This document shows, one piece after another, positions 13,615-53,777 of a DNA stretch of 64,000 nt. The notes beneath the pieces are model-generated. The model made no database searches, was not told the origin of the DNA, and saw nothing but the letters and a program-made list of their open reading frames with translations. Every line of letters begins with the position of its first letter. Position 1 is the stretch's first letter. Location: the NCBI GenBank assembly GCA_963799775.1, contig CAWCYD010000003.1, positions 1,568,001-1,632,000 on the forward strand, given 5' to 3'. Origin of the DNA: an uncultured archaeon (GTDB taxonomy: Archaea; Thermoproteota; Nitrososphaeria; Nitrososphaerales; Gagatemarchaeaceae). The translations under genes and the position numbers were made by a program.

Positions 13615-13615
13615 T

Positions 13616-13960: not shown

Positions 13961-13967
13961 GTGTTTA

Positions 13968-37997: not shown

Positions 37998-38246
37998 TTA
38001 GACTACGACTTCGACTAGTTCCGCGTTCTTGGACACTTCCCTCTCCTTGAGGTGCTCAAGAACCAATTCGATTGCCTCCTTGATGTTGACGAGGGCTTCT
38101 TTCCTCGTCTCGCCCTGGCTGATGGCCTGGGGAAGTTCGAGGCATTGGACCGAGTAGCCGCCTTCCTCCTCCGGTTCCAATATGACGGTGAAGCGTCGAC
38201 CGCCGCGGACGGCTACTCGCTTGGACATGCGTGGAGTTCGGGCCAC
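37998..38246 (-). CDS. hicB: HicB antitoxin
   Basis: FTVILEPEEEGGYSV...LP.AISQGETRKEALVNIKEAI. Confidence 0.9.
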   Translation of the reverse strand: MARTPRMSKRVAVRGGRRFTVILEPEEEGGYSVQCLELPQAISQGETRKEALVNIKEAIELVLEHLKEREVSKNAELVEVVV

Positions 38247-38286
38247 GCTTCACTATTAAGCCTAACGTGGTTCTATCGTGGATTGC

Positions 38287-38520
38287 TTACCCTTCGACGA
38301 CGATCATCGTCAGGGTGCTCCTGACGCGGTCGAGCCTGCGTATCTTCCAAGTGATGGTCTCCTTGACCTTCTCCATGGTGTCGGCCTCGACCCGAGCTAT
38401 GATATCATAAACGCCGTACACAACATAGACGTCCTTCACAAACTCTAATCCCCTTAGGGATTTCAGAAGCTCCTCCTCAGCGCCTAAATCAGCATTTATT
38501 AAAACGAACGCCATCGGCAA
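38287..38520 (-). CDS. Stand-alone Lrp/AsnC ligand-binding (RAM) domain protein
   Basis: AFVLIN...VYGVYDIIARVEA...IRRLDRVRSTLTMIV. Confidence 0.9.
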   Translation of the reverse strand: MPMAFVLINADLGAEEELLKSLRGLEFVKDVYVVYGVYDIIARVEADTMEKVKETITWKIRRLDRVRSTLTMIVVEG

Positions 38521-38679
38521 TTGTCGAATCTCTGCCTCTCGCATTACTATGGTGATGAGCGGTAATAACCATTGCTACTTGCGTTGCTAAAACGAAAGCC
38601 AAGGGCATTTTTGCGTTCGTCACCATTTAGCCGAACTCGGTATAAAGAGTTCATTTCCCACCTTACCGCGTAAGATCCG

Positions 38680-39357
38680 ATGAAGCGCGGAGAAGCAGCC
38701 TTTGCAACCATCCAGCTCATCATCTTCGCTGCCGTTCTGACCCTCGTGGCCCTGCCGGCCTTGAATGCTCCGTTCGTCCCGCGCTCTTTCGTCGCGACCA
38801 CGACAACCCCGTCAACCCAGGGTCTCGTCCTTACTCTCACCCTCAACTCGACCAGCCTGAAGAGCGGGCAGGGAATCAAGGCCACGGTCGAAGAGGTGAA
38901 TACGCTCCGCCAGACCAACAACGTGTCCGCCTCTGACAACTGGCCCTTGAAGAGCGCGACAGAGATACGGGGGACGACGCTGAACGATGGTGATTGCGGC
39001 CCAATCAACTTCCCCATGGGTTTGGAAATCGTCAGCGGATATTACACAAAAGACAACGCCTCGACGGCGCATCCACTCGAGCTCTACGGGTTTGGGTTGA
39101 CCAGTTGTCCTGCGGTCCTCAGCGAGATAGACCAATACAGCTTCCAGGCATCGAGCGAGAACGCGAGCATCATCGGAAGCTGCGACCCCAATCCGTGCTT
39201 TGCATACGGAATGACTGCCTCGGTGAGCGCCCGTGGCTCTTGGACGAGCTTCCTGGTCTTTGGTCCCAGCTTCGCGAACTTTGGCCCTGGCGTGTACACG
39301 GTTATTGCCGGAGACGAGTGGGGCGCCCTCGCCTTCACGTACTTTGACGTCGAATAG
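38680..39357 (+). CDS. Secreted/anchored protein with GDEWG-motif Ig-like domain
   Basis: Leader MKRGEAAF..LVALP; LTLNST...WP...C...CP...GVYTVIAGDEWG. Confidence 0.7.
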   Translation: MKRGEAAFATIQLIIFAAVLTLVALPALNAPFVPRSFVATTTTPSTQGLVLTLTLNSTSLKSGQGIKATVEEVNTLRQTNNVSASDNWPLKSATEIRGTTLNDGDCGPINFPMGLEIVSGYYTKDNASTAHPLELYGFGLTSCPAVLSEIDQYSFQASSENASIIGSCDPNPCFAYGMTASVSARGSWTSFLVFGPSFANFGPGVYTVIAGDEWGALAFTYFDVE

Positions 39358-39406
39358 GTCGCCGCCTACGCAGTTCTTCTCATGGGGATTACCGCTGACC
39401 CGCCTA

Positions 39407-40567
39407 TTAGGGCAAGGGGCAGTTCTGTCCCGAGCCAACAAGAGCTGTGTCCACGTACCCGGGGCCAGCGGAGTCATGGAAGGCTATGAATTCCGAGGGC
39501 AGGGTCACCAACAGCTCGTTCATCAAACCATTGTAAGCCACGAACTGAGGTGTGCCCGGGAGCGAGTACATATCGAGCAGAGCCCCTGTCGCCCCGTCGT
39601 AGATGAACGTGTAGTTGAAGTCGAGAGAAATCGCTGCTATTTGGTCCGTGTTCTGAACGTAAGCCATGCTGTCGAACGGGCCGCACTCCTGCGGATTGAC
39701 CTTGAAGACCACCTGCCCATTGGTCGCGTTGATAGCGGCCAAAGTGTCGCCCGACACGTAGAAGAGGTGGTGTACCGTGTTGACGGCGACCCTGGGATAA
39801 CTCCCTCCTCCGAGCGTTACGTTGGCAACGAGGCTATTGCTCGTGCCATTAACAATGTACGCTACAGAGTCGCAGACAAAGCTGCCGACACACCCTGCCC
39901 CGATAATCATGTTCGTGCTCGGGTCGACGGCGATGGAGTCTGGCGAGTGTGGAAGGGGCACTCTCGCAACCACAGAACCCGTCTGGACGTTGATTCCCGT
40001 CAGCGTGCCATTGGCCGAACCGTAGAGGACGTGTGTGACCTGGTCGTACGCGAGGGTTCCATACCCGAGGGCCGGATGGAGCTCCCCCACAATCTGGTCA
40101 GTTGTGCCGTTGATCTCCACAACTCCGCCATCGACCGATACATAGACCATGTGGGTCTGCCAATCCGTTGCGATCCCGTTCTCGCTCCCCGCCGGGAGCT
40201 GAATGCTGGCCAGCACTTTGTGCGCGTAGCCGTTCACGACTGTGAGGTTCTTCGAGGACCACCCAGCGATGTAGATCTCGTCGGGGTTGGGATCCAGCCC
40301 GATTGTGCGGGGCTGCTGCCCTCCCAGCGTGATGTTGAAGGTCTCAAGGCTTGAAGCGGGAAACGGCGGACCTAGGGATACCGTGGCGGTAGCTGTGCTC
40401 AAAGTTGTCGTCTGTATAGACAAGACTGTAGAGACGCTCGTGAGAGTCGAAACTGAAGTCGCAGTCACGGTAGCGGTTTGGCGGGAGCCTGACCCGACGA
40501 AATAGCCAACTCCAAGGCCTGTTGCGACCAGAATCACGAGGACAATCGCAACAATATCATTTCTCAT
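39407..40567 (-). CDS. YncE-like beta-propeller surface protein
   Basis: N-term TM, T-rich linker, repeated IAVD...VYV...ING.T units. Confidence 0.75.
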   Translation of the reverse strand: MRNDIVAIVLVILVATGLGVGYFVGSGSRQTATVTATSVSTLTSVSTVLSIQTTTLSTATATVSLGPPFPASSLETFNITLGGQQPRTIGLDPNPDEIYIAGWSSKNLTVVNGYAHKVLASIQLPAGSENGIATDWQTHMVYVSVDGGVVEINGTTDQIVGELHPALGYGTLAYDQVTHVLYGSANGTLTGINVQTGSVVARVPLPHSPDSIAVDPSTNMIIGAGCVGSFVCDSVAYIVNGTSNSLVANVTLGGGSYPRVAVNTVHHLFYVSGDTLAAINATNGQVVFKVNPQECGPFDSMAYVQNTDQIAAISLDFNYTFIYDGATGALLDMYSLPGTPQFVAYNGLMNELLVTLPSEFIAFHDSAGPGYVDTALVGSGQNCPLP

Positions 40568-40780
40568 TTTTACTGTGACATGCGGAGAAGGGGGCGCTCA
40601 CTATTGAACCTAACAACCAGCTCCTGCAGAGGAATGTTTCACCGCATATGGCGAGGTTCCATTGCGCCTCAGCGAGGACAATTCAAGCCGCGTCCCAGTA
40701 ATGTGGTCAGTGACGGATGCCTGTTTATCCACATTTGCAACATTTCCACGAAAGGTTTTCCGGCGACAGTGTTTTGGCAA

Positions 40781-42359
40781 TCAATGGTAAACATTGATGA
40801 TCTGGAGTTGGAACACATCTAGAAACGGCTGGCCGTTGACGCTCTCGTTCAGGACTATTGTGACACTCTCTTGCGGTGTGTTGGCAAATGTATTGATGCA
40901 CACTTGGAAGTAGTAGGGCTGGTCAGCCTGGATCACGAGCGAAGAATTGACAGGGAAGACCTGGAGCCAATTGGGGAGCGGGGACCTCCGTATCATTCTG
41001 GATTAAGCCGACCCCCGTGAAATTCACGGATAGGGTCGCATTTGAGATCATGCCAGGTGTGGGATCATAGACACCGGCTCCAATGGCGTAGTTGGTCTGA
41101 TCGGTCCCTATCTCTGCCGCCTGTGCGCCGGGAGAAAAGCCGACCGGCCCTGGTGAGCTCAATATGTGCGGGTTCCCGTCTGCATTGTTCAGCGCTATCA
41201 GGCCCTCTCCCATCAGGCCCTTGACGGAACCAGAAGCGTCGATGAAGAGAGAGTCGTTGAATGGGTTTGCGGGCGGAGGTGGGATATGGGTCTGCGGAGG
41301 AGGCGGTATTCCGACGCCGATCCCAAAGAGGAGCAGCGTAGAGGTCGCCCCCTGGGGGCCGACGTTCTCAAGGTGAGAAGGACTGAACTCCATCCAGGCG
41401 CCCTTCGGGACATCTGGAGAACTGAGATACACATCGGTCGTTGTGTTCGATGTCACAGTGACCTGGAACTTTTGTCCGCTAGCGAAGAAATCGTTCGGCC
41501 CGGCGTTCGACCCACATGAGCTCGCGTAGAGGTACACCCATGAGTAGGACGGCCCGCTGATCGTGACCTTGATTCCCTGCTGGATGGCGGTCGCATCACG
41601 CGCCATGAAGTAGACTGAGCCTATCGGCCTGACGGTGCGAAAGTCGAAGATGTACCCGCCCGGATGGGCGGAGAACTGTCCGCTGAAGCCTCCGCCTGGG
41701 AAACCACCTCCTGGGATCGAGACGCTCCTTGTCACGTTCTGGAGCGTCCCGGATAGAACCAGGGGTCGGAGGTCAGTAGAGTTGATCATCGCATCAGGCG
41801 TGAAGTAAACTGTGAGGTTCAGTTGCAATCCATTAAGGTCGGTACCTCGGAACGTGAATTGAATGGAAGCATTGTTCGAGAGTTCGAAGCCGAAGAGCTG
41901 CTCATGCAGGACTCCGCTCCATGAGGGTGGCTCGGGCTCGGAGACGTCCGTAGACATGTTGAATGTCTGAGGGACACCGACGGTGGACTCGGAAGAGGTG
42001 CACATTGGCGTGCTCCCGTTGGGGTAGGACGTCGCACAGTCTTCGTGGTACATCGTGGGAAGCCCCGAAGCGTTGAGAAGCGTGTCCTCGCTCGCAGCCA
42101 AGACCGAGCTAAAGGAAGAAGAGTTCTGAACATTGGCGCTGACGGTTGTCGAGTTCGCGCTAGAAGACGTAACGGTCGCAGGCGAGGACGTAGCGCTTTA
42201 TGGAGAGCCGGGGGTCTGCGTCGAAGCATTCGTCGTCGGCGAAAATCCTCTGGTGATCGATTGCGTGGGAGTGGAAGGGAGAGATAGAAACACAAGCAGC
42301 GAGGCTATCGCTACTGTGGCCAGAACGCCTCCCACAAGAGCTCCTTCGTTCCTCCTCAA
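40781..42359 (-). CDS. Secreted/anchored protein, paralog of 55835..57415 (frameshifts near 42110 and 40980)
   Basis: Shared GVPQTFNMS, AHPGGYIFDFRTVR, GLMGEGLIALN, IQADQPYYFQ.C. Confidence 0.75.
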
Positions 42360-42713
42360 GGTCACCAATGGAGTTCCAAGGCATTGGTACTATTATCTCC
42401 TGTGAAGCTTCCCTCCCTCCTGAGCTAAAGGGCAGAGGTGGGTGAGGGCACCGAGATTTGCGTGGAAGAAGAGCCGCCGTCTGAGTGATAGCCAACCCTG
42501 CCGACTATCGTGAGCGCAACCAAGACGGTCACTGTCGCCGCCGCGCTCCTCATAGTCTTCAGATTTACGGAGACTCTCGTCAGCGATGGGGCGGTTCTGT
42601 GCACCACGCCGCCTTGGTGTGCTCTTTTGACAGGCGGACCGTGAGCTGAAGCCCTTCTCGACTTCACAAGAGTTTTTGACCATCCTCTGGCTATTCTTTT
42701 TCAGTCTGTCCCC

Positions 42714-43442
42714 ATGAAGAGGAAAGAAGCTAGCTTCATAGTGATACAAACAGGAATCCTAGTGGCTGTGCTTCTGCTCGTCTCCCTCCCCATACAGTCT
42801 CCATCGCCGCCGCCAAGTCCTCCAAATCCGATGGAAGAAACGTGCGCACAGACCCAGTCTTCAACCGCTCCACCTACCCTCCTAAGTCCTGTCAAAAACG
42901 AGACGACATTATCGAACGGCACGGTCGTCGACGAAACGTACTATCCCGTCCTGCTCCTTCGACCCGATACGACAGGAGCAATCTGCGTCAGGTATACCGA
43001 CCCGCTTTCGAAGGTGTCACAGAACCTTGTCGGAGCTACGTCGCTTTCCACCGGGATATTCGAGGTCAACAAGTCCTCGGGCGGAGGGGGAGAGACGATG
43101 GGGGTGGTTCCGCTCCCTCGAGGTGGCATCCTCAGCATCAGCGCGAGCCCTTCTCTGATCCAAGTCCAACCCGGCAGGAGCGAGGTCATCGCTTACACAT
43201 TGACATCGGGGAATTCGACCGGTGTGTATGAAGCAATGATGCCGCCGTGGGGCTACTGCTGGGGGCTACCGATATTTGTCGGGGGGAGCCCTTCCCAGCT
43301 CAATGCTACGGACTATTCTCAACTCGCTTTCATCACTAACCTGGCATGCTTTCCGCCTGGTGCAAGCAATCTCGTTGTGCTCTCAATCGCTTTCAGTAAC
43401 ATCGCGTTGGAATATGTGAGCCAGCCTGGCAGCAATGATTGA
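42714..43442 (+). CDS. Secreted/anchored Cys-containing protein
   Basis: Leader MKRKEASF..LLLVSLP; TTLSNGTV..PVLL..CVRY shared with 58742..59968. Confidence 0.7.
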   Translation: MKRKEASFIVIQTGILVAVLLLVSLPIQSPSPPPSPPNPMEETCAQTQSSTAPPTLLSPVKNETTLSNGTVVDETYYPVLLLRPDTTGAICVRYTDPLSKVSQNLVGATSLSTGIFEVNKSSGGGGETMGVVPLPRGGILSISASPSLIQVQPGRSEVIAYTLTSGNSTGVYEAMMPPWGYCWGLPIFVGGSPSQLNATDYSQLAFITNLACFPPGASNLVVLSIAFSNIALEYVSQPGSND

Positions 43443-43634
43443 TTCTTCGACTACCCATGGAAGTAGTGGCATCCTCGTAAGGTTCGAAATCATTCTCACG
43501 CCTTGAGCGAGACGTGTTTGATTCCCTGGGGTCAAGGTAGGCGAGGAGTTCACTGTGTTAGGGGTTCATTGCGGCAAAGTTTGGACAAATCTATTTACCG
43601 CGCCGAGTGGAATGACCCTGCAGCGTCTTGGGCC

Positions 43635-44832
43635 TTGCCCAGTCGAAACACTTTCGGTTACGCCGCAATTCTCGCCGCTGCGATAGCGTGTGTTCTTGCC
43701 CTCGACCTTGTGGTCTTCCCCGTCTACCTGCCGCCGGTTGGCCCAAGCCAAACGTCGACGGGCGAGGCTAATGCCCAGCTCGGCTTACGCCTCACCCTCT
43801 CGCTGAACTCTACGAGGGTCGCATTCGGTGGACGCATCCAGATTGGCGTCGAGGAGCGGAACACCCTCTCGCGAGAGTGAACAACGTCACGGCCGCCGAT
43901 GACTGGCCGGCTGTGGGGCTTGACCTGGCCGCCGGGCCGAGGTCGATCTGCCCGGAGAGGGACGACATGGGGATAATCATCTACGAGGGTCCGCTAGACT
44001 TTGGAAACGTGTCCAGCGTGACCGGGGAGCAGATTGCGCCTGAAGGGGGTGCGTCATGCCCTTTTGTGCCGGGAATAATCTACTCGTACCAGTTTCAGGC
44101 CTCGAGCGACAACGCCACGGAGGCGTATGGCTGCAAGCCGGGCGCTTCTAACTCATCCGGGCCCGGCACGTCCTGTAGCTGCGTCCCTAGATCCTGTTCC
44201 CCTTTGGGCGTGAAGCCGGCGTTGACACAGAAGACCCTCGTCGTAAGAGGCTACTATGTCAATTTCACCACCCTCCACGCTTTTGCACCTGGTGAGTACT
44301 CGTGGTCGCGGGAGACGAATGGGGCGACGTCGCAATAGCTCACTTCACGGTCACGAGCCCGGGCTGCAAGACCTTGGACGATTCGCTGCCGTTTCCGGCA
44401 CTCCAGGAGAGAACCATCGGGGTCATCAACGAGCCAGGGGCCTGGGCATTCACTGCGAGTCTGGACAGCGCGGTGGGCTTTTTTGGAAGGAACGTGACAA
44501 TAAGCGCCAGCCTGGTGAACGTTGGGAACACATCTGAGAAGATCGAGCTCGTGGTTCCCATAATCGCACGTCTTCAGGTGCTCCGGAGTGATGGGAGCGC
44601 GGCTTGGACCTACGCCGCTCCATCACCCTTTCCATTACCCTTTTCGCCTAGTCTCTCCCTGGAGGATGTCACTCCCGACCAGCGGTTCAGCGATTCGGTT
44701 GGAATCCCCACCTCGCAGTTGCAACTCGGACAGAACTATACCGTGGTGGTTAGCCCGACATTCTTCGCCTCGCCGCCGTCAGCTCCCATCTCCTCCGGCT
44801 TGGGAATCACCTTCCCGCTGATGATCTGTTAA
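43635..44832 (+). CDS. Secreted/anchored GDEWG-domain protein with extra Ig-like domain (frameshifts near 43875 and 44320)
   Basis: TM, LTLSLNST, NNVTAADDWP, VAGDEWG across three frames. Confidence 0.65.
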
Positions 44833-44902
44833 GGGTTCATTGCTCCTCCGCTTGCGCGTTTCATCCGCACGTTGGACTACAGTTATGGCTTGGGCATAAT
44901 CC

Positions 44903-45910
44903 TTAGGCGGACTTGGACACTGGCCCAACCACCCATACTACAAAGGAAGCTGAACAGTAGACCTCACCGTTCGAAGGCTCGACCATGAGTACGCCAAAGA
45001 TGTTCCCCACGATTGGATCACGAATCGTCGCGATCGGCGTGTTCGTGCTACCCGATATGACCACGATTGAAGACACAATTGTGGAGTTAGTCCGCTCGCT
45101 CGTCGATACGTAAAGATCTCCTGTGGCATTGTCGAACGCGAGGGCTGAGGGCGAGCCACCGAGTGCTATCGTCCCGTCGGCAGAATTGGTCGAACCTGAG
45201 ATGACAAAGATGCTGTCGTCATACATCGTGCTCAGGACATAGATGTTGCCGTTCGACGGATCCAGCACTGGTGTCTTGGGCGCGTACCCGACCGTAAGGT
45301 TGGCGATGACAGAGTTGGTTTGACCGGAAACCACAGAGACAAAACCGCGTGTCCAGCCGATACAACCATTGCAAGTAGGGAAGCCCGCACCATAGTCTGG
45401 CACGTAGATATCTCCGTTAAGAGGGTCGAATAATGGCGTAGCAGGATTTAGACCTACTTGCAAATCGGCAACTATCTCGTTTGTGGATCCTGATATCACT
45501 GATAGAGTGCCCCCGGGCGAAACACCGCGATTGGAACTGTTACCGAGATGAGGCACGTAGATGTCACCATTCGTCGGGTCGAGTGTAGGGGTGGCGTCTT
45601 CCTGGCCGAGCTGCATGGTTGAGACAAGTGCATTAGTCGTCCCAGATATTATTGAGATGGCATTGACGTCGGGCACATACAGGTCACCGTTGAGCGGATC
45701 AAACAACGGAGTCAAGGGCTCGATGCCAACTTCAATCCTGGCGCCGTCAACTCGTAGAGACCTGTCGCTGCGACCACGATGAGCAGAGTGCAAACGAACG
45801 CGAGAGATGCTGATTGTATGGCATGCCTGTGACGCTTCGCTAGCCAATCCAAGACCCTCTACACGTTCGAGCGTAATGGTCTGCGGGTCTATTTCAAGTC
45901 GCCGAATCAA
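44903..45910 (-). CDS. YVTN beta-propeller protein (5' end uncertain)
   Basis: Repeated TPLFDPLNGDIYVP...VISG.TN units; no clear signal peptide. Confidence 0.7.
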   Translation of the reverse strand: MIRRLEIDPQTITLERVEGLGLASEASQACHTISISRVRLHSAHRGRSDRSLRVDGARIEVGIEPLTPLFDPLNGDLYVPDVNAISIISGTTNALVSTMQLGQEDATPTLDPTNGDIYVPHLGNSSNRGVSPGGTLSVISGSTNEIVADLQVGLNPATPLFDPLNGDIYVPDYGAGFPTCNGCIGWTRGFVSVVSGQTNSVIANLTVGYAPKTPVLDPSNGNIYVLSTMYDDSIFVISGSTNSADGTIALGGSPSALAFDNATGDLYVSTSERTNSTIVSSIVVISGSTNTPIATIRDPIVGNIFGVLMVEPSNGEVYCSASFVVWVVGPVSKSA

Positions 45911-45996
45911 TCCTTCGGGTCAGCGTCCGCTAGCCGGCTGAAAATGCGAGCGTTCGCCGAACAAAGGGTTCATTGCGCCTCCCGATTCTATTCGCC

Positions 45997-46587
45997 TTAG
46001 GGGGTGAAGGCGCCCAGGAACGCGAGACATCCGTAGTCTGTCCCATTGACGGTCTCCGTGGTGTATCCTATGCAACCATACACGCTCTGTCCCACTACCG
46101 GGGCTTTCACTCCGCCGAATTTCTGGGAGAAGATGGCCGTGAAGTTCGTGATGGTCCCAGTTGCTGTAATACTGGAGATGTAATACGAGGGAGAGCTCGT
46201 GCAGCTCGTGGCGGCACCACCACCGAAATTGTTCCCCGAACCGTAGGTCAGATCGACGCAATCCAGGCCCTTGTCGAGAGTAGTGCCGATGTCCGATGGC
46301 TGGTCTATGTTCGTGATTAGAAAGGTGCAGGTGTCGTTGCTGATACTGCACCCGGTTAGGTCAACACCCTTGGTCGGGCCGATGAACTCGTTGGAGAATT
46401 CGCCCGCGCCCGTTGGCTGCGAGGTCGTCGTTGTCACAATCGTGCTCGTCAGGTAGCTCGTCTGGAACAGGGTGGTTGTGGAGGTGGACGTCTCGGTGCG
46501 GACTGTGGAGGTGCCTGCAAAATATCCAACGCCAAGGCTCACCACTAGGAGGACTGTCACTGAAAGTGCAAGTAACTCGCGCTTCAA
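45997..46587 (-). CDS. Secreted/anchored T-rich, Cys-containing protein
   Basis: TM LGVGYFAG (like 39407..40567), T-rich linker, six Cys. Confidence 0.65.
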   Translation of the reverse strand: MKRELLALSVTVLLVVSLGVGYFAGTSTVRTETSTSTTTLFQTSYLTSTIVTTTTSQPTGAGEFSNEFIGPTKGVDLTGCSISNDTCTFLITNIDQPSDIGTTLDKGLDCVDLTYGSGNNFGGGAATSCTSSPSYYISSITATGTITNFTAIFSQKFGGVKAPVVGQSVYGCIGYTTETVNGTDYGCLAFLGAFTP

Positions 46588-46701
46588 CTCGAATCGAGAG
46601 AGGCCCGCCTTCCTATTGAAGGCTAGGGAGGAATCCTCTCGCGCGTGGGGGCAAATTGCCGCCATGCATATGGGTTCATTGCGCCTCCGTCGGGGATTGC
46701 G

Positions 46702-47781
46702 CTAGGGGCAGGTCGATGACAAGTAAGCAATCGTGACGTTCGTCCTCCCTGAAGGAAGATATAGGCTCGCGCACGTCGTCGAGAGCGGGGAAAGGCCCGC
46801 CGTCAACGTGTAGCTCTGGCCTGAGTATTTGACGAGGATTGAATATCCCCCGATGTTGTAGGTTCCCAATGAGTACCACTCTCGGCCTCCTGATGTAGTG
46901 AAGTATTGGGACTGTGGCTGACCGCATGGCTGTCCATTGACCGAGTCGGGGTGGGTGGTCGCATTCACCATCGCTCCCACCACAGGCGTCTGGTTCGAGT
47001 CCCAGATGACTCGGAGGTCGAAGCCGTCGGCCTGGCCTGTGATGACGCACTGCTCTGATGTCGAGGTCGTCTGCAGTGGAGACGTGGAGGAGGAGGATTC
47101 GGGAGTCGTACCGGGACCCAGTGTGAAGTTGGCTTCCAGCACTGAAGCCGAGCCCGTGCCGTCACCCGCGGCCAAGCTATAGTTCCCCGCTGTCACTGCG
47201 CCCATCCCCACCGTGACTACGCCTCCACTTTCGCCCGGCGCGGCAGTGTTCCAATCGGTTTCGCACGAGTCTCCAGTCGGAGACGGCGTCCCCGGCGCTC
47301 CCAGGGCGATGCATGGAGCCGTCTGGAGGACTAGGCTTCCAGTTGAGTTGGTAATCGTGAATGCCACCGTGTCGCTGTCGTAGAGTGATGCCGCCAAGCA
47401 GACGTCATCCCCGACCTTTGCGTTGGTAGAGACGTACAGCATCCCCTGCGAGTTCGAAGCCACCAGAGCGCAATCGCAGCCTGGCCATCCGGTCTCAGTG
47501 ACGGTGTAGGACGAGTTGCCTGTGTGGCCGGGGGAAGGAGCGCACTCTGACGAACTGACAGATTGAGACGAATTGGACCCAGTGAGGAACGTGCTTGTCG
47601 ACTGTGAGGTGGACGGAGAGGAGCTGATGGTGCTCGCCGGCCCGCCCGGATTAGTGTACGAGAAGTAGGAGTAAGTTGCCCCGGCGACCACGATCGCTGT
47701 AATCACCAGGAGGACCATGGCTGTCCGCTGGATTGCTACTCTTCGAGGCAACGCGCAATCGCTCTTTTCTTGAGGCGTCAT
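46702..47781 (-). CDS. Secreted/anchored two-domain S/T-rich protein
   Basis: Class III-like leader RRVA-IQRTAMVLLV, S/T linkers, paired Cys. Confidence 0.65.
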   Translation of the reverse strand: MTPQEKSDCALPRRVAIQRTAMVLLVITAIVVAGATYSYFSYTNPGGPASTISSSPSTSQSTSTFLTGSNSSQSVSSSECAPSPGHTGNSSYTVTETGWPGCDCALVASNSQGMLYVSTNAKVGDDVCLAASLYDSDTVAFTITNSTGSLVLQTAPCIALGAPGTPSPTGDSCETDWNTAAPGESGGVVTVGMGAVTAGNYSLAAGDGTGSASVLEANFTLGPGTTPESSSSTSPLQTTSTSEQCVITGQADGFDLRVIWDSNQTPVVGAMVNATTHPDSVNGQPCGQPQSQYFTTSGGREWYSLGTYNIGGYSILVKYSGQSYTLTAGLSPLSTTCASLYLPSGRTNVTIAYLSSTCP

Positions 47782-47879
47782 TCGTGATATACTTTTGTCC
47801 GAACGTTACAGCTCACGCTAGCTTATCGAAAATGCGGGCATTCGCCGAGCATAGGGTTCATCGCGCCTCCGCCGGAGAT

Positions 47880-48341
47880 TCACGACGGTCTCGCAGCGAT
47901 GCCGTCTGCACAAATCTGTGAGTGAGGCGCAGGGTCGCTCGAACCCGAATGCACGCCCGACTCAGGGCTTCCCCGTCTTTGGTAGAGGAAGATGGCTCCC
48001 AGAGCAAGAGCGAAGCCAACAAGCCAGACGAGGATAATCCCAGGTCCCACAGGGACGTGGAGGAGCCCGAAGAGCTCGGGCGAGCAACGCCCACCGATCC
48101 CGGTAACGAGACTCGTGCTCGTGTAGTTGGCCGGGTAGGTACCCGAAACAGTCCCTCTGCCGACGGTGCTCGACCAAACGCAGACGTACCCGAACGAGGT
48201 CGTGACGGTGGTCGTCCCCGTGATGGTCCCGGCCACGGGAAAGAAATCGACGACCCCTCTCGGGGCGAGGCTCATCACGAAGAGCACGTAGAGCACGGCG
48301 AAGACGGCCACGACGATGCTTAGGCTGGGAAGGAGCCTCAA
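47880..48341 (-). CDS. Two-TM membrane protein
   Basis: N- and C-terminal TM with T-rich loop. Confidence 0.5.
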   Translation of the reverse strand: MRLLPSLSIVVAVFAVLYVLFVMSLAPRGVVDFFPVAGTITGTTTVTTSFGYVCVWSSTVGRGTVSGTYPANYTSTSLVTGIGGRCSPELFGLLHVPVGPGIILVWLVGFALALGAIFLYQRRGSPESGVHSGSSDPAPHSQICADGIAARPS

Positions 48342-48422
48342 GTGTCAGCTTCTATGTTCTAGAGAACCTCCAGGGCTTTATCCCATTCGTCGCAGTCACA
48401 GTGGTAATGGTGGGCTTTCCTC

Positions 48423-49361
48423 CTATGAGAGGACGGTAATCTCGAGCAGGACATTCATGTCGCACGTGAAGAAGAACTGCAGAGTCACACTTCCGTTGAA
48501 GAGGGAGACTGGTCCCTGACCGAAGTCGGGAGGCCAGCTCTGGCCATTCCAAGCTCCAAGGTTGGTGTAATTTGCAACCTGTGTCGTTTGCCCGTTTGAG
48601 ACGTGCAGAAAGACCTGAGGCCAAAGGTAGACGACCTGAGGAGTGTTGGAGTAGGCGACCGCCCTGACCGCGTACCCTCCCACGCTTACCGACGTGCCAT
48701 TCCATTGCCAAGAGTTGAACTGGGCAGTCACGTTGAGGACTGAGACAGCCTTGGTTGTGGAACTCGAGTTGGAAGGCGCTTGGCCCGAATAGCAGGTTGA
48801 GGTTTGGACCGTGCTGCTTGGGGGAACAATCTGAACCTGCACCGTATAGGAGAACTGCGTTCCGTTCACGAGGGTTCCACTGATCGTAAGAGGATATTCG
48901 AGGCTGCTGTCAATTGAATAGCCGATCAAAGTACGCGTTTCCTGGATGCTTTGGCCAAGCAGGAGGGGATTCGACGAGTTCACGTTGAACACGAAGGATT
49001 ACGGGACGGACGGTCCTCCGGGAAGCCTTGGTAGGGTCGCGTTCAGAGAGGTGATTGGAGTCTCGCCCGTATTCTTCAAGGATATGCTGATTACCGGCCC
49101 TCCCGGATTGGGGGGCGGGATCGGACCCGTTACCGAAACGACCTGGACGGGGCCATTGGATGTAGTCACCGTCTGGGTATTGTTCTCAGAGACATTCGTG
49201 ACTGTTCCAGAAGTGGTCGTCTCACAGCAGAGAATTGTGGTCTGAGAAGTCGCGGAAGGTGATGACGTCACGGCAAGGTAACCCGCTGCAACAGCGGCCA
49301 CGATTATGACGGCCACGAAAGCGACTGCGGCCCCCGCAACTGCTTTCCGGTTCCGAGCCAT
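48423..49361 (-). CDS. Secreted/anchored protein (frameshift near 49000)
   Basis: RNRKA-VAGAAVAF leader; VQVVSVTGP...SLKNTG joins F.VNSSNPLL frame. Confidence 0.6.
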
Positions 49362-49561
49362 GCAAAGTCGATGATGAACACGCCAACGCGCCATTAGTAC
49401 TTTTGTCCGAACGCTCCAGCTCTAGCTGGATTCGAGAAAATGCGGGCTGGACCATGCATAAGGGTTCAGTGCGCCTTCGCCGGTGAAAGTTCCAGAAGGC
49501 GTATCTATCCCGGGAGCAGGCAAAGCGGTGATGCTGATGGTAGGATCTCGACTTTCATTGG

Positions 49562-50071
49562 ATGGCTAGGGTCTCAACTTTGGAACTTACCCTTCAGGAT
49601 TACTTGGTCTGGCTGAAGAGACTCTCCGTATTGGGGATGTTCGGTGGTTACATCATCGGAAGACTGCCTCCCCCGCCCCTCACGTGCAACAATCCTCAGG
49701 TAATCAACGGACAACCTTTCTGCATGTATAGTGGGCCCGTCATCCCGCCCATAACCGCTGTCGTAGGAATCCCGATGCTCTTGCTCTCGGCTTTCGGGCT
49801 TGCCTCCTTCTTCCTGATCAGGCAGATCGCCCCCGGCGAAACGGGAGGTGCGATGAGCAGTATCTGGCTCGTGCTTGCCGTGGCTATCATGCTGCCGCTT
49901 ACGGTATTCACTTACGAGGAACAGGCGACACTCGCGTGGTTCGGGACACCGCTCACACCGCTGACTGTGGGAATCGGAGTACCAATCATTGCTTGCTCGG
50001 TCTTCAGGTTCGTCAGGCCCTACAAGGTCAAGTGGACACCCGAAGCTAACGAGAGTGAACTATTCGCCTAG
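49562..50071 (+). CDS. Multi-TM membrane protein
   Basis: Four hydrophobic segments. Confidence 0.55.
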   Translation: MARVSTLELTLQDYLVWLKRLSVLGMFGGYIIGRLPPPPLTCNNPQVINGQPFCMYSGPVIPPITAVVGIPMLLLSAFGLASFFLIRQIAPGETGGAMSSIWLVLAVAIMLPLTVFTYEEQATLAWFGTPLTPLTVGIGVPIIACSVFRFVRPYKVKWTPEANESELFA

Positions 50072-50171
50072 GTCTCTCTCGTCGCTTGCTTGTGGCAGCC
50101 TTCGTCGTGAAATGGGTTCATTGCGCCTCCGCCGGGCATTTCATTCACTCGTTGGGCAAACGGTTCTCCCA

Positions 50172-50402
50172 TCAATCGAGCAAGTCTAGGAATTGCTCAA
50201 CGGTAAATCCAGCCTCACTGATTATCGCTCTTAGGGTTCCTCGGGGAATCTCATCATAGTTCGGAATGGCAATCCTGCGATGGGGCGGCTCTTCGCGCCT
50301 GAGAACTATGTGGCTTCCCTTTTGATGGTCGAACCTGTAGCCAATCTTCGATAATGCTTTGACGACTTCCTTTGCCGAAAGAATCGGAAGCTTCCTAGGC
50401 AT
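50172..50402 (-). CDS. hicA: HicA toxin
   Basis: SAKEVVKALSKIGY...QKGSHIVL...IP...EIPRGTLRAI. Confidence 0.9.
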   Translation of the reverse strand: MPRKLPILSAKEVVKALSKIGYRFDHQKGSHIVLRREEPPHRRIAIPNYDEIPRGTLRAIISEAGFTVEQFLDLLD

Positions 50403-50634
50403 TCATTTCAACTGTCACGATTTCCTCGTTTATCGGAGGCGGAACAGGCTCGTTATGCTTCTGCAAGCTTTCGATGTAAGCTTGGATTGCCTCTTTGATG
50501 TTCTTCAGTGCCTCGGCCCTCGTCGACCCGGAAGAGATGCAGCCTGGCAGCTCGGGGACTCTCGCAGTGAACTTGCCATCCTCGTCCTGTTCGATCAGGG
50601 TCCGATACCGCAGTTTGAGTTTCCGCGAAGCCAT
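50395..50634 (-). CDS. hicB: HicB antitoxin
   Basis: EQDEDGKFTARVPELPGCISSGSTRAEALKNIKEAI. Confidence 0.9.
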   Translation of the reverse strand: MASRKLKLRYRTLIEQDEDGKFTARVPELPGCISSGSTRAEALKNIKEAIQAYIESLQKHNEPVPPPINEEIVTVEMNA

Positions 50635-50786
50635 GCGGAGGAACGGAGCTCTGTCGCTCGATATAACTATCTCGGCGGTCGGTGTGGAGTGACCAAGACG
50701 AGGGAAGCTTAGCCGCCGTGCTAAGAAGGTTCATTGCGCCTCCGCCGGGGCGCTGATTGCTTGACCCTCACGAGTTCGAGCCTTTC

Positions 50787-51752
50787 TCATCCGCCGACCA
50801 AGCCGACGCCCGGCGGTCGCTGCACAACCGGTCCGTCGGTCCTTTCAAGATCGTCGAAGAGGTTGAGCAGCATCCTTCCCATGGGTGTCACCTCGTAGAG
50901 CCTGACCGTCCCGTAGGCCGACTGCTCCCTGACGAAGCCGTACTTGTTGAGCGTCTGCATGTGCCTGTCCACGGTCTTCCAGTCGACCCCCAGTTCCTCT
51001 GCCAATTGGAGCCTGTCCTTGGGGGTGCTCAGCGTGTTGAGGAGCCTGATCCTGGTGGCCCCGCCCTTCATCTTCATGAAGAGCTCGAAGACGTCCGACC
51101 CGAACCCCATCTCGCTGTATCGCGCCCTCACCCGGCCCCTCCAGACCCAGGCCCCGCCCACGAGGACCCACGTCACGGGGGCCACGAAGAGCGAGGCGGA
51201 TTGCACCTCCCTCAAGAGCGATGCGCCTTCGGTGGTTGAGATGGCGGCGAGAGCAGCCGAGTTCTGGGAACTGGTGGTCGCGCCGCCGAAAGTGTAGCCG
51301 GCCCCGCCGGTAGAGGTCGAGACGGCTCCTGCTGCGGAGGAAGCTGTGACCGTCGTTACCGGCCCCGCCGGGGCGTTTACAACAGCGGTGGTCGTGGATG
51401 TGGAGGTAATCGTTGACGTCGCAGTTGTCGTGATACTCGAGGTCACGACGGTCGTGGTTGACTCGGTAGCTGGGCTGGACACTGTGCTCGATAGAGCAGA
51501 GGAACCCCCGGCCGACTGCCCGGCGGCGGTCGAGGTCGCTGTCGAGACCGAAGAGCTTGCTTTGGTCGATGAAGCCTGCGCCGCGGCTGAGGATGAGATG
51601 CTTGAGGACGATGTGGGCGCTTCGGAATTCGAGGCCGCGGAATTCAGTGCCGGGACGGCGGATTGAGAAGTGACAAGACCCCACCCTGCCAGTAATGAGG
51701 TCCCTGCCGCAACGAATAGCAAAGCGGCGAAGGCGGCCGCAAACTTGTTCAA
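50787..51752 (-). CDS. Membrane-tethered regulator: N-term TM, extracellular S/T-rich region, second TM, cytoplasmic ArsR-like wHTH
   Basis: GGATRIRLL...DRLQLAEELGVDWKTVDRHMQTL...GFV...LYEVT. Confidence 0.8.
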   Translation of the reverse strand: MNKFAAAFAALLFVAAGTSLLAGWGLVTSQSAVPALNSAASNSEAPTSSSSISSSAAAQASSTKASSSVSTATSTAAGQSAGGSSALSSTVSSPATESTTTVVTSSITTTATSTITSTSTTTAVVNAPAGPVTTVTASSAAGAVSTSTGGAGYTFGGATTSSQNSAALAAISTTEGASLLREVQSASLFVAPVTWVLVGGAWVWRGRVRARYSEMGFGSDVFELFMKMKGGATRIRLLNTLSTPKDRLQLAEELGVDWKTVDRHMQTLNKYGFVREQSAYGTVRLYEVTPMGRMLLNLFDDLERTDGPVVQRPPGVGLVGG

Positions 51753-51796
51753 TCTAACAGCAGATAGGAAAAAATCGCCTGGTCACCATAAATAGT

Positions 51797-51818
51797 TTTG
51801 TCCGAACGTTCGGACAAA
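51797..51818. promoter_or_regulatory. Perfect 22-bp palindrome TTTGTCCGAACGTTCGGACAAA in divergent promoter
   Basis: Direct reading; half-sites recur at 43579, 47791, 49399, 55805 next to TATA-like sequences. Confidence 0.75.
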
Positions 51819-51851
51819 CCCTCATCTCGACACAGGTCGCTATTGCCGGTC

Positions 51852-53172
51852 ATGCGTTCGAGAAGGGCACTTGCCGTCATCGTATTGCTGCTTGTCGTCG
51901 TCGGGGGAGGAGTAGTAGTGGGTCTGACCGGGGCGCCGAATGCCTTGCGGGCAGGGTCGATGTTGAACGCACCCTCCACACAGAACATCGAGGCGGGCCC
52001 GGCCCTCGCGAGCATCGGGACGAGCTTCGGCTTTGGGGCGGTGGCGAGCTCGACTTCGGCCGCAGCCAACGTCCCTATCTCTGCCGGAGCAGTCACCACT
52101 TTGACTACGACCGAGATCGCGTCTTCGACCGTATCCGCGCCCGCGAGCGGCAGCACCATTGCTATTCAGGGCAACTCGCAGGCGTTTTCGACAGGAGCGC
52201 CTCTTACGGCCGCCTCGGCTGAAGCCAACTCGAGCCGCGACATCGAGTTCTTCACCAACGTCACGCTCCAGGCCCCTTCGGCATCGGCTGCCTTCACAAA
52301 GGCGACTGCGATCGCCTACTCGCTCGGGGGATACGTCTCTGACTCCACCGAGAGCAACACCACCGCCCTCGTGGTCATCCGCGTTCCGGCGGCGAGCGAC
52401 CAGGAAGCCCTGGCGCAGGTCGAGGGTCTCGGCACGCGGGTCACCTTGAGCTCCTCGAGCAACGACGTGACCGTGCAGTACACCGACCTGAACGCGACCC
52501 TCCAGTCTCTGCAGGCCGAGCAGAGCTCCCTGCTTACGATCCTCGGCCAGTCGACCAACATCAACTCGACCCTGAACGTAGAGTCGAGGGTCCAGTCCGT
52601 CGACCAGCAGATCAATGCCGTGGAGAGCGAGATCCTGCAGACGAGGACGCTCGTCTCCTACGCCACGATTTCTACGTTCATCGAGGAGAAGGCGCCCGCA
52701 CAGCCGCTCACGATAAAGGTCACGGCGACACCGCGAACCGGTGACGCCCCGCTCAGCGTGACGTTCAACGCTGTGACGAAGGGCGGGGTCCAGCCGTACA
52801 TCGTGAACTACAACTTTGGCGACGGGCACCTCCTACGAGGGGCAGGCGCTCATACACACGTTCCAGCAGGCCGGGCGCTACAACGTGACGGTCACCGCAA
52901 CGGACGCCTCGGCCAACGTCACGGAGGCATGGACGGTGGTCAACGTCTCCCCCGCTCCGGCAGCCTCGGGCTTCGGCGGCTTCCCTAACTTCATAGGAGG
53001 GCTCTTCCTGCAGGTGGTCGAGGGGATCGCGGAGGTCGCGGTGGTCGTGCTCCCGGTCGCGGGCGCCCTCCTGTTGGTGCTCTTCCCCCTCCGGCACAGG
53101 TTGGGGATGTCCTCAGGACGGCCCAGTCACGATGAGGAAAGGAAGGCCGGGGAACCCGACAAGACTTCGTGA
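51852..53172 (+). CDS. DUF4349 + PKD domain membrane protein (frameshift near 52825)
   Basis: VIRVPA...DVTVQYTDL...VSYATI (DUF4349); APLSVTF...NFGDG...HTF..AG.YNVTVTATD (PKD); C-term TM. Confidence 0.8.
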
Positions 53173-53297
53173 CGATATTGTGTTGAGGTGATCTGCGGTC
53201 CGAGACGCGAGCGCCGTGCGTTGCGAAAGCAAAGCGTTACGATAATAACCATCTCTCATATGTCCAGCTATACGATTCCACTCAGGAGGGAAGGACA

Positions 53298-53777
53298 ATG
53301 CAAGCCCGATCCGCGGCGATAGGCGCTATCACGCTAGCGCTCGTGATAGTTTCCTTCGCAGTGGGCCTAGGGTTTGCCGGAGGCCATACTACGACGTTGG
53401 TCCAGTACTCGACGAACATAGTCACGTTCTCAACAACCCAGACGATAACCTATGCCTCCTCCGCCACAGGCCCTAATACCTCAACCACTTTCACAATCAC
53501 CAAAGAAATCATAGTCCAAGACACTTACGTGAACGACATATGCGTCATTACCCCGGGGGGACTCAATGTCGTCTCTTCCAGTTTCCTCGTTCCTCCAGGA
53601 CTTGGTAATGGTCCTTCGCCAGTGACAGTAACCACCACGACAATCACTCAGCCCGAAGCTGTCACGCTATACGAAAACGCGACGATATATTCGAACACCA
53701 GCTTCGTTTGCACCTTGATCAACCCCCACTACAACGTTACACAGACGAGTACCAATCCTGATTGCTTCTGTGCTTAG
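53298..53777 (+). CDS. Secreted T-rich protein
   Basis: Signal/TM, T-rich, C-terminal CFC. Confidence 0.55.
   Translation: MQARSAAIGAITLALVIVSFAVGLGFAGGHTTTLVQYSTNIVTFSTTQTITYASSATGPNTSTTFTITKEIIVQDTYVNDICVITPGGLNVVSSSFLVPPGLGNGPSPVTVTTTTITQPEAVTLYENATIYSNTSFVCTLINPHYNVTQTSTNPDCFCA

Follow-up and report, generated by a model that had tools for sequence, protein, structure and literature searches.

A probable integron-like cassette system of a soil Nitrososphaeria genus at a site derived from the 23S rRNA trailer

The array in the window and its flanks

The 64,000-nt stretch of DNA analyzed here (the window) contains a run of short, co-oriented repeat cores separated by gene-sized intervals and flanked on one side by a conserved regulator gene. 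It is a secondary array of a system that occurs across the genus, and it comprises the following features.

40655–40676, minus strand: distal core, degenerate: 1 nt is inserted, and 3 positions differ from the 17-mer CGGAGGCGCAATGAACC
40923–44832, mixed strands: distal, degraded part of the array, with ORFs at 40923–42101 (minus), 42714–43442 (plus), and 43503–43880, 43877–44338 and 44302–44832 (plus; the last three possibly one broken gene)
43562–43573, minus strand: half-site remnant of 12 nt (GGGTTCATTGCG)
44833–44889, minus strand: core copy (44833–44854, 3 mismatches to the 22-mer) with about 35 nt similar to the 23S 3' end (TTTCATCCGCACGTTGGACTACAG)
44903–49394, minus strand: six cassette ORFs, co-directional with the cores (44903–45910, 45997–46665, 46702–47781, 47880–48341, 48423–48992 and 48999–49394)
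45921–45982, minus strand: core lacking part of its CCGG side (17 nt kept, 45966–45982), with the downstream hairpin module
46672–46693, minus strand: core copy, 1 mismatch to the 22-mer, 17-mer exact
47783–47875, minus strand: long-form copy with the same modules as 49391–49483; core at 47854–47875, 1 mismatch
49391–49483, minus strand: long-form copy; core at 49462–49483, 2 mismatches
49562–50071, plus strand: membrane-protein cassette in reverse orientation
50114–50162, minus strand: exact core copy (50114–50135) with about 27 nt (50136–50162) similar to the end of the 23S rRNA gene
50172–50634, minus strand: toxin–antitoxin cassette of hicA (50172–50402) and hicB (50395–50634), by Pfam
50727–50748, minus strand: core copy nearest the regulator gene, 38 nt past its stop; 17-mer exact
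50787–51752, minus strand: flanking regulator gene (membrane-anchored winged-helix, HVO_A0261_N-like), a core gene outside the cassette system
51797–51818: perfect palindrome of 22 bp (TTTGTCCGAACGTTCGGACAAA) where the regulator and DUF4349 genes diverge

With up to three mismatches allowed, a 22-mer representing the repeat matches the window six times, always on the plus strand (44833, 46672, 47854, 49462, 50114 and 50727), against a chance expectation of 0.00 from 100 dinucleotide-preserving shuffles. The original prediction counted nine co-oriented copies; all are indeed co-oriented and seven are solid, the half-site at 43562 and the degenerate copy at 40655 being marginal. The copy at 45966 matches over 17 nt (GGGTTCATTGCGCCTCC) and diverges after that, and similarity to a paralogous cassette of the genome's main array (C3:1884509–1884691, 84%) begins precisely at base 43562. 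In several copies the repeat exceeds 22 nt, with 82% identity over 50 nt between 47790–47839 and 49398–49447. Read on the minus strand, the long form at 49391–49483 consists of the core, a small hairpin followed by TTTTC, a CCAGCT/AGCTGG hairpin and GTTCGGACAAA, which carries an A/T-rich box immediately before the ATG at 49394; its counterpart at 47783–47875 lies directly upstream of the gene at 46702–47781. Several cassettes carry in their leaders a half-site of the palindrome at 51797–51818, with an A/T-rich box after it.

Intervals in the window measure 613–2907 nt from start to start and hold one to three crude ORFs each (called as the longest non-overlapping ORFs) in either orientation, so that the predicted freedom of orientation holds and the predicted one or two genes per interval is exceeded in places. 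The anticipated hicBA pair is recovered by Pfam (HicA 50172–50399, HicB 50395–50631), and in a relative, G007, a homologous pair forms the 23rd cassette of the 23S-linked array. The protein of the cassette at 49562–50071 is 75% identical to that of the first cassette past the 23S gene in another relative, G018, and its DNA has a 92% identical paralogue at C3:373003–373226, the similarity stopping exactly at the ...CCGCCGG edge of the core. No Pfam family was found for the six ORFs of 44903–49394 or for the ORFs of the distal part; on inspection, most of the six have hydrophobic N-termini and Ser/Thr-rich stretches and are therefore probably secreted or membrane proteins.

The regulator gene had served as the reference point from which copies were thought to decay. 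Together with the DUF4349 gene (51798–52988) it forms a pair conserved in six relatives; five of the six relatives scanned have no array beside it, and it is therefore not the anchor of the system. Decay with distance from it is only a trend in the window (Spearman rho 0.74, p 0.057, n=7).

The core and the 23S rRNA processing stem

What is the origin of the repeat? Rather than the arbitrary, non-canonical sequence it was taken for, the 22-mer is the central part of a site of about 24 nt that reads CCCCGGCGGAGGCGCAATGAACCC on the minus strand and is identical to the 3' strand of the same genome's 23S pre-rRNA processing stem. The LSU rRNA lies at L001:5478–9442 (Rfam), and the first core follows about 10–11 nt further on. 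By complementarity, the 23S 5' leader (...GCCGTGCATAGGGTTCGCGCAAGCATCCGCCGGGG...) pairs with the trailer CCCCGGCGG-AG-GCGC-AAT-GAACCC-TT-TATGCACGGC, at −60.8 kcal/mol for leader plus trailer (RNAcofold). The leader core has the same sequence in all five genomes fetched and the trailer core in five of six, being partly N-masked in the remaining one, while the outer stem covaries across species (GCCGTG/CACGGC versus GCCATG/CATGGC). Complementarity, cofolding and this compensatory change together identify the long leader–trailer helix of an archaeal 23S processing stem.

A canonical bulge-helix-bulge consists of a 3-nt bulge, a 4-bp helix and a second 3-nt bulge, and is cut by the splicing endonuclease. 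By eye, a 4-bp GCGC:GCGC helix lies between AAT of the trailer and AAG of the leader, the minimum-free-energy fold drawing the center slightly differently. We read the core region as the bulge-helix-bulge part of the stem; the minimal conserved unit coincides with the trailer portion that forms the bulged central helices. As far as the available parts of two papers on archaeal pre-rRNA go (PMC7038931, PMC8339473), the native copy beside the 23S gene corresponds to the processing stem with its bulge-helix-bulge motif, in its leader–trailer helix and in its covariation. This stem is normally single-copy, as is the trailer of two genomes of other families (G036 and G032), whereas here the 3' strand alone has been amplified about 70-fold and bounds gene cassettes; the complementary 5' half, the 23S leader, is single-copy in the genome.

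Sequence flanking the core varies in extent, from 0 to 83 nt of 23S origin on the left and from 10 to 75 nt of trailer origin on the right. At least 22 nt matching the 23S 3' end precede the core in 20 of 71 non-reference copies, and at least 42 nt in nine of the 71; GTTRRRY-like words beside some cores are simply the 23S 3' end. One fixed crossover does not explain the varying lengths of the 23S-derived flank, and homologous recombination or imprecise events must therefore also contribute. Inverted-repeat arms, usual for the core sites of tyrosine recombinases, were not found in the core by inspection.

Arrays across the genus and candidate recombinases

The genome, 81.7% complete, holds about 70 co-oriented core copies. 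A scan with the core returned 63 matches, compared with two for a reversed control, in co-oriented clusters that argue against a REP/MITE-like scatter. Cores are spaced 391–9312 nt apart with ORFs in the intervals, and CRISPR is rejected on these grounds, as it had been from the window. The main array begins at the 3' end of the 23S gene and extends over 54 kb, about 2% of the 2.47-Mb genome, with all 51 cores co-oriented, a median spacing of 793 nt and one or two crude ORFs in 41 of the 51 intervals. A Pfam family was assigned to 27 of its 93 crude ORFs, at least 11 of these 27 being toxin–antitoxin parts; the remaining ORFs of the 93 have no family. The specialization in cell-surface diversification suggested by the window does not carry over to this cargo, which includes VapBC-type, MazE/PIN, Fic/Doc, TumE and AIPR genes, regulators, TBP, an FtsZ-like gene and CorA beside the many genes of no family. 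Nor do the main arrays show the age-related decay expected from addition at one end (rho 0.13, 0.27, 0.05 and −0.09, all non-significant).

Beyond this genome, the core occurs in 20 of the 22 further genomes scanned from the genus, in 22 of 24 from the family and, outside the family, in one of 16. Arrays begin at the 23S 3' end in this genome (G000) and in G018, G014, G007 and G021, and a secondary array of G018 starts with a 173-nt 23S fragment of 94% identity. Comparison between species bears out the expectation of modular content: eight cassette pairs are common to arrays of different species, at different positions (for example, G000 c26 with G007 c18, c43 with G018 c17, c45 with G018 c06, and c02 of the window with c01 of the G018 rrn array), and the DNA similarity of shared cassettes is confined between the flanking cores. 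Array genes are non-syntenic between species, while the flanking core genes are syntenic. Co-oriented cassettes with one site each are exchanged as units, as in integrons. Neither strain-level presence/absence polymorphism nor excised circles were seen in the sequencing runs found, which were limited to low-depth short contigs.

Five PF00589 matches occur in the genome, none in an array and none in the window, where the absence of an integrase had been noted. In four species (five loci counting L007), a conserved backbone comprises a gene for a zinc-ribbon tyrosine recombinase (int), a dnaJ-like gene and a first core, the core lying 533–615 nt past the end of the integrase match at the five loci. 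Past it follow one to five differing cassettes and a last core, and the flank to the right of these is again conserved. The edges of this conservation fall inside GGCGGAGGCGCAATGAACC, and int points in the same direction as the cassettes. The linked integrase family (E≤1e-20) was found in only 10 of the genus's 22 other genomes; G018 (87% complete, arrays present) yielded none, and in the single-contig G007 the only homologue is 57% identical and lies more than 10 kb from any core. The zinc-ribbon tyrosine recombinase is a putative catalyst of core recombination, which we put forward tentatively.

IntI is a tyrosine recombinase with an IntI-specific additional domain, and attC folds as an imperfect single-stranded DNA hairpin (R''-L''/L'-R'). 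Among the five tyrosine recombinases of the 81.7%-complete genome, NCBIfam recognized no IntI (TIGR02249 integrase_gron, best 55.6 bits, cutoff 265; NF011946, best 26.2 bits, cutoff 435), and 11 junctions folded as single-stranded DNA gave z values of −1.85 to +1.24 and no common long, attC-like hairpin. With no recombinase reaching the IntI cutoff and no such hairpin at the junctions, a canonical integron is rejected. The predicted integron-like array survives as a set of repeat-bounded modules, independent between species and outside the integron family.

A model of cassette exchange and its alternatives

We propose that these arrays probably represent an integron-like cassette system of a soil Nitrososphaeria (Thaumarchaeota) genus that recombines at a site derived from the rRNA trailer. 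Its cassettes of one or two genes are bounded by the core of about 24 nt, a copy of the 3' strand of the 23S processing stem. The native trailer, directly after the single 23S rRNA gene, would be the primary docking site, at which some 50 cassettes would accumulate in one orientation, and insertion, loss and exchange would proceed by recombination with the exchange point inside the core. We infer this recombination to be site-specific and to act on double-stranded DNA. Any core, chromosomal or on an integrated element, might serve as a site, which would give rise to secondary arrays such as that of the window and to the small arrays beside the zinc-ribbon tyrosine recombinase and DnaJ-like gene on an integrated element. 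It is conceivable, if improbable, that Archaea arrived here independently at the integron principle, without IntI and attC, the site of the system being a DNA copy of half a bulge-helix-bulge and therefore having a dual role. As DNA it would dock cassettes behind the sole rRNA operon; as RNA, cassette transcripts or read-through pre-rRNA would form with the 23S leader a helix that the tRNA-splicing endonuclease would cut. Cassette expression would then be coupled to ribosome biogenesis.

Could the arrays have formed without a dedicated system? The trailer, with its terminator-like hairpin and a promoter module, might have been copied as a handy module between genes, the arrays growing and shuffling only by general homologous recombination or gene conversion among these short repeats. 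The variable 23S- and trailer-derived flanks, the hairpins and promoter-like box of long-form copies and the arrays of genomes in which the linked integrase was not found would all fit. Yet a sharply delimited core (about 24 nt) persists amid diverged flanks, in some 70 copies per genome and in at least 19 genomes; backbone and cassette boundaries fall inside it in four species; and the main-array cores are strictly co-oriented. How unrelated genes gain a core would also go unexplained, and we consider this account rather unlikely. Alternatively, the cassettes may be mobile through a hijacked host XerA-type recombinase, comparable to IMEX and Acinetobacter pdif, with the zinc-ribbon integrase uninvolved. 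Such an enzyme would suit arrays without the linked integrase, and a XerA-like gene is present at C3:9004–10008, with recomb_XerA_Arch as its best NCBIfam match (151.6 bits, under the 220-bit cutoff). On inspection, however, the core does not show the short spacer between two inverted arms that marks dif, and the fixed-distance linkage of int, dnaJ and core in four species points to a dedicated enzyme, so that the involvement of XerA seems quite improbable.

That the minimal conserved unit coincides with the bulged central helices would also be expected if the core acted mainly as RNA, cassette transcripts pairing with the 23S leader to be cut by the tRNA-splicing endonuclease, or serving as decoys, and the arrays being kept for that purpose. 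Pairing with the leader is predicted for five of six window copies tested (−42 to −68 kcal/mol), but the 5' half is single-copy, so that no cassette forms the helix within its own transcript, and the DNA-level modularity between species would be left unexplained; we regard a mainly RNA-level function as very unlikely. Least probable of all is a MITE- or REP-like mobile intergenic element inserted between pre-existing genes. A short non-coding repeat in many copies, with a variable long form, might suggest one, but the copies form co-oriented, gene-spaced clusters from the 23S gene onward, have no terminal inverted repeats and fold at their junctions no better than shuffles, and it is the array genes, not the flanking core genes, that lack synteny between species.

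How does the proposed cassette system relate to known ones? To our knowledge, integron-like gene capture is known from IntI/attC systems and has been reported in Archaea only as canonical attC arrays, through bacterial models. Xer-dependent IMEX elements and the pdif modules of Acinetobacter plasmids are small modules, often of toxin–antitoxin or accessory genes, between short recombination sites that mimic an essential host sequence; pdif sites are inverted-arm dif mimics in alternating orientation. The arrays described here likewise place small accessory or toxin–antitoxin modules between short sites mimicking an essential host sequence, but all their cores share one orientation, the sequence mimicked is one for rRNA processing, and the host is an archaeon.

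As described in the available parts of Ghaly et al. 2022 (PMC9668308), sedentary chromosomal integrons and CALINs, including archaeal integrons, share with our system long co-oriented arrays of one or two genes per cassette, a recombination site bounding each cassette, a cargo mostly of no known family plus toxin–antitoxin genes, and arrays that mostly have no adjacent integrase. A putative small platform with a tyrosine recombinase beside the first site, and cassettes at differing positions across species, are further points in common with integrons. Unlike in integrons, a copied 23S rRNA trailer serves as the site, the rRNA operon anchors the main array, and many cassettes seem to have a promoter-like box of their own. 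Tandem arrays of integrative elements share a single att site, which is mostly a tRNA gene's 3' end (Krupovic et al. 2019, PMC6563490), and from the available parts of that paper the likeness lies in the re-use of a conserved RNA-gene 3' end as the integration target and in a partial duplicate of that end per insertion, here up to 83 nt, and 173 nt in G018. By contrast, our units are single-gene cassettes of 0.4–3 kb without integrase remnants, about 50 of them consecutive, and they target the 23S rRNA trailer instead of a tRNA; that paper mentions neither rRNA nor 23S. The Gagatemarchaeaceae genomics paper does not mention integrons, cassettes, toxin–antitoxin genes, integrases or genomic islands, and in the literature searched no account of cassette arrays located at the 3' end of an rRNA was found.

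The proposed system would represent a second, structurally unrelated route to cassette arrays, in which an essential rRNA processing signal supplies the double-stranded core, with a new candidate pair of recombinase and site. It would explain the large accessory-gene reservoir of abundant soil archaea, comprising toxin–antitoxin pairs, surface proteins and regulators, and the core would provide a simple sequence tag with which to locate such reservoirs.

The repeat and the 23S rRNA processing stem

A search of the window with the 22-mer GGGTTCATTGCGCCTCCGCCGG at up to 3 mismatches returned six matches, with none expected from 100 shuffles, and the repeat array described in the original prediction holds. 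Nine copies had been claimed; six of them match the 22-mer, whereas the other three are truncated, degenerate or a mere half-site.

Core copies in the window
44833, 46672, 47854, 49462, 50114 and 50727, plus strand: matches to the 22-mer with at most 3 mismatches
45966: truncated core, 17 nt retained
40655: degenerate core with a 1-nt insertion
43562: half-site of 12 nt only

The unit common to all copies, the core, is about 24 nt long, and cassette junctions would lie inside its stretch CCCCGGCGGAGGCGCAATGAACCC. Some copies far exceed 22 nt, as in 47790-47839 and 49398-49447, which share 82% identity over 50 nt. The predicted gene-sized intervals with ORFs in either orientation were confirmed, as was the hicBA pair, identified by Pfam as HicA and HicB. 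No known RNA family was matched in Rfam across window positions 38000-54000 (E≤1).

The 23S rRNA gene (Rfam) of the genome holding the window, G000, is located on its contig C3 at C3:1863478-1867442 (L001:5478-9442 in the excised locus), and the first core of a large array starts at about C3:1867451-1867453, shortly after the end of the gene at C3:1867442. The immediate 5′ neighbor of the gene, the leader GCCGTGCATAGGGTTCGCGCAAGCATCCGCCGGGG, is complementary to the trailer CCCCGGCGG-AG-GCGC-AAT-GAACCC-TT-TATGCACGGC, with a pairing energy of -60.8 kcal/mol in RNAcofold. By eye, the stem centers on a 4-bp GCGC:GCGC helix with bulges AAT in the trailer and AAG in the leader. This center would form a bulge-helix-bulge, with the exact bulges presumably as assigned here; such a layout is known for archaeal pre-rRNA processing stems (accessible portions of PMC7038931 and PMC8339473). 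The leader core is the same in all five genomes from which a leader was retrieved and the trailer core in five of six, the sixth being partly N-masked, and the outer helix carries a compensatory change (GCCGTG/CACGGC versus GCCATG/CATGGC). Taken together, complementarity next to the 23S gene, conservation and compensatory change identify the originally noted repeat as the trailer-side (3′) strand of this 23S stem.

We aligned 72 copies to the native trailer locus, and the alignment ran across the core for 70. Leaving the reference aside, 20 of 71 copies also match the native locus over 22 nt or more on the upstream side of the core, reaching into the 23S gene; in nine, the match covers 42 nt or more (maximum 83). 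In the window, such 23S-derived matches extend over 27 nt at 50114 and 35 nt at 44833. The 23S gene itself contains a group I intron (L001:7517-7772, C3:1865517-1865772; Rfam RF00028, 77.5 bits), as does that of the relative G007 (L101:16779-17154).

Two other readings of the core were discarded. Its minus strand reads CCGG-CGGAGGCGCAATGAACC, in which GGAGG-N4-ATG AAC CC resembles a ribosome-binding site followed by an "MNP..." start. Single-base indels directly after ATGAACC between copies demonstrate that the core is not protein-coding, and the ORFs that follow the core ATG are short and mutually unrelated. A bulge-helix-bulge formed in cis within cassettes is ruled out by the 5′ leader half of the stem, which has a single copy in the G000 genome.

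Cassette arrays and their cargo

With a 17-mer from the core and up to 2 mismatches, the 2.47-Mb genome yields 63 occurrences, compared to 2 for a reversed control. The copies are clustered and co-oriented in the genome-wide scan, not scattered as a dispersed repeat would be.

Distribution of cores in the genome
C3:1867451-1921255 (approximate start and end): main array, 51 cores, median spacing 793 nt
The window; C3:122-126 kb, 373 kb, 1355-1362 kb, 1767-1769 kb and 1843 kb: smaller clusters
C3:1387684; C2:172293 (a second contig): single cores

In the main array, 41 of 51 intervals hold one or two crude ORFs, and 63 of 96 ORFs share the orientation of the cores. The original prediction envisaged a polarized array decaying with distance from a regulator, the wHTH gene at 50787-51752. 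In the window, core mismatches increase with that distance, but the trend is non-significant (rho 0.74, p 0.057, n=7), and a mismatch gradient is absent from four 23S-linked arrays (rho 0.13, 0.27, 0.05 and -0.09), leaving polarity without support.

Do cassettes behave as modules? When the crude ORFs of seven arrays were compared all against all, eight cassette pairs proved common to arrays at different positions.

Cassettes common to two arrays (c, cassette number within the array; G007, G018 and G021, genomes of relatives)
G000 c26 and G007 c18
G000 c43 and G018 c17
G000 c45 and G018 c06
G000 c46 and G007 c20
Window c01 (hicAB) and G007 c23
Window c02 and the cassette directly downstream of the 23S gene in G018
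G000 c01 and c07 of the secondary array in G018
G007 c01 and G021 c05

DNA similarity of common cassettes is limited to the interval between both flanking cores: for c45/c06 it starts at the first base past the core start, and for c43/c17 it runs through to the far edge of the next core. Likewise, window 49912-50136 and C3:373003-373226 of the same genome share 92% identity, and the similarity breaks off exactly at ...CCGCCGG. A search for sequencing runs returned no RNA run and two low-share DNA runs of one study, which cover part of the window with short contigs at low depth. Their joints at cores have a shorter side of only 21-39 letters, which other repeat copies could produce and which makes true deletions inseparable; loose ends fall at core edges (46695, 49483, 50114 and 50728), and neither pattern weighs for or against excision.

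The main array has 93 crude ORFs, 27 of them with a Pfam family. Toxin–antitoxin and defense functions comprise two VapB, five PIN and two MazE-type proteins, Fic/Doc, TumE and an AIPR abortive-infection protein; the regulators are ArsR and AsnC; other cargo includes CorA, thermopsin, one IS transposase and two genes located as follows.

L003:2779-3411, minus strand: TATA-binding protein gene, cassette of the 23S-linked array
L003:11434-12891, plus strand: FtsZ/tubulin gene with an inserted ArsR-type HTH, cassette of the 23S-linked array

Among the window-array ORFs scanned, only HicA and HicB received a family, and most of the others look secreted or membrane-bound by inspection. The predicted specialization in cell-surface functions is not borne out by the main array, given its toxin–antitoxin genes, regulators and other cargo. 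Two large Ser/Thr-rich putative surface proteins (40781-42086, in the degraded distal array, and 55835-57139, outside it) are paralogs, 68% identical at the DNA level across 1.35 kb.

Between the divergent wHTH regulator and a DUF4349 gene, positions 51797-51818 form a perfect palindrome of 22 bp, TTTGTCCGAACGTTCGGACAAA. Genome-wide, there are 18 instances of its half-site GTTCGGRCAAA followed by an A/T-rich box; 11 or more of them are in cassette leaders, and the window has copies at 47783-47808 and 49391-49416. Similar copies, palindromic or half-site, are found at C3:1500316-1500359 and at C2 ~313-314 kb, near a paralog of the regulator. These elements may constitute an operator that connects the regulator with some of the cassettes.

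Recombinases and core-bearing loci

The genome (81.7% complete) encodes five PF00589 tyrosine recombinases, none of them in the window or the arrays, in line with the expectation of a recombinase encoded elsewhere; the identity of the enzyme is unproven. In the same assembly, reverse transcriptase (PF00078), serine recombinase (PF00239) and Y1 HUH transposase (PF01797) had no match. Two of the tyrosine recombinases are paralogs that carry a zinc ribbon at the C terminus (C3:1384721-1385773 and C3:121054-122091). Downstream of each lies a DnaJ-domain gene and, beyond it, cores, and their closest homologs (69-71% identity, in G020, G011 and G017) have the matching layout. These loci run from the integrase through the dnaJ-like gene to a first core (533-615 nt past the end of the integrase match), one to five unrelated cassettes, a last core and a right flank that is conserved in all five loci. 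Backbone conservation ends and restarts within GGCGGAGGCGCAATGAACC, which places the exchange point inside the core. At one such locus, a STAND NTPase (L007:6367-7656) is 94.7% identical over 302 aa to its counterpart in G020 (L107, G020:C86, oriented 13166-14197), which is a cassette with cores on both sides, while the neighboring integrases of the two species share 69% identity; the gene was probably transferred recently, judging from these identities.

Several observations speak against the zinc-ribbon enzyme. Its family (E≤1e-20) was detected in just 10 of the 22 other genus genomes, G018 not being among them. More distant homologs, of 40-60% identity, lack a core within 10 kb, as does the one encoded by G007, a genome in a single contig. 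Among solved structures, XerA and XerD come nearest to the enzyme, and its database relatives are Nitrososphaeria integrases. The layout resembles an integron platform, but the best IntI score among all five tyrosine recombinases is 55.6 bits against a cutoff of 265 (TIGR02249), and 11 junctions folded as single-stranded DNA have no attC-like hairpin in common (z -1.85 to +1.24). Hence, the array system is not an integron in the strict sense.

A tRNA-derived att site was likewise ruled out as the origin of the core, which is not tRNA-like and is overlapped by no ARAGORN tRNA. The array at C3:1355630-1361932 is near a tRNA-Val gene (C3:1362956-1363051) and has tRNA-Val 3′-end fragments; at C3:1355630-1355740, a partial tRNA-Val 3′ end (...TTCTCTCCCGGCCCACC...) comes after each of two cores. 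This arrangement suggests a core-bearing element integrated at tRNA-Val. Just upstream of an integrase, L005:4701-4907 holds a spurious ORF translating ...AGSNPARGT..., as a translated tRNA T-arm typically would. ARAGORN found no tRNA there, and the segment could represent an incomplete tRNA att site belonging to an integrated element.

Conservation and the docking site

Of the 22 other genus genomes, 20 contain the core, as do 22 of 24 from the family; outside the family, it occurs in one of 16 genomes of the order. G036 and G032, two high-quality genomes from other families, have a single-copy native trailer with a related sequence. The 23S 3′ end is the start of a co-oriented core array in G000, G018, G014, G007 and G021. 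The regulator and the DUF4349 gene (51798-52988) were kept as a pair in G018, G011, G017, G020, G008 and G016, with cores nearby only in G018 and ordinary genes in the other five. The regulator is thus not borne out as the anchor of the array, and the window array is an accessory insertion. At its start, the array beside this pair in G018 has 173 nt of the 23S 3′ end (94% identity), and gene order suggests that this array corresponds to the window array after inversion. The best named relatives of a neighboring thermosome gene are Thaumarchaeota or Nitrososphaerales MAGs; beside thermosome genes, the exact 15-mer was found in none of 80 related loci, mostly from other genera. Window 38288-38520, about 230 nt within a minus-strand ORF (38287-38544), is 74-86% identical in most genomes of the genus, and shorter pieces occur in multiple copies, e.g., at five places on G011:C1.

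Canonical IntI/attC integrons have been reported in Archaea (Ghaly et al., PMC9668308), and integrated elements of Thaumarchaeota have been surveyed (Krupovic et al., PMC6563490). The accessible portions of the former do not mention "rRNA", and those of the latter neither "rRNA" nor "23S"; those of a Gagatemarchaeaceae genomics paper (PMC10640624) do not mention integron, cassette, integrase or toxin–antitoxin. No description of cassette arrays at an rRNA 3′ end was found in the literature searched.

The original prediction was right in kind, a cassette array served by a recombinase encoded elsewhere, and its anchor, polarity and cargo specialization were not sustained. Recombination, by an unproven enzyme, most likely occurs within a core of 24 nt that originates from the 23S trailer, with the 3′ end of the rRNA operon as the primary docking site.
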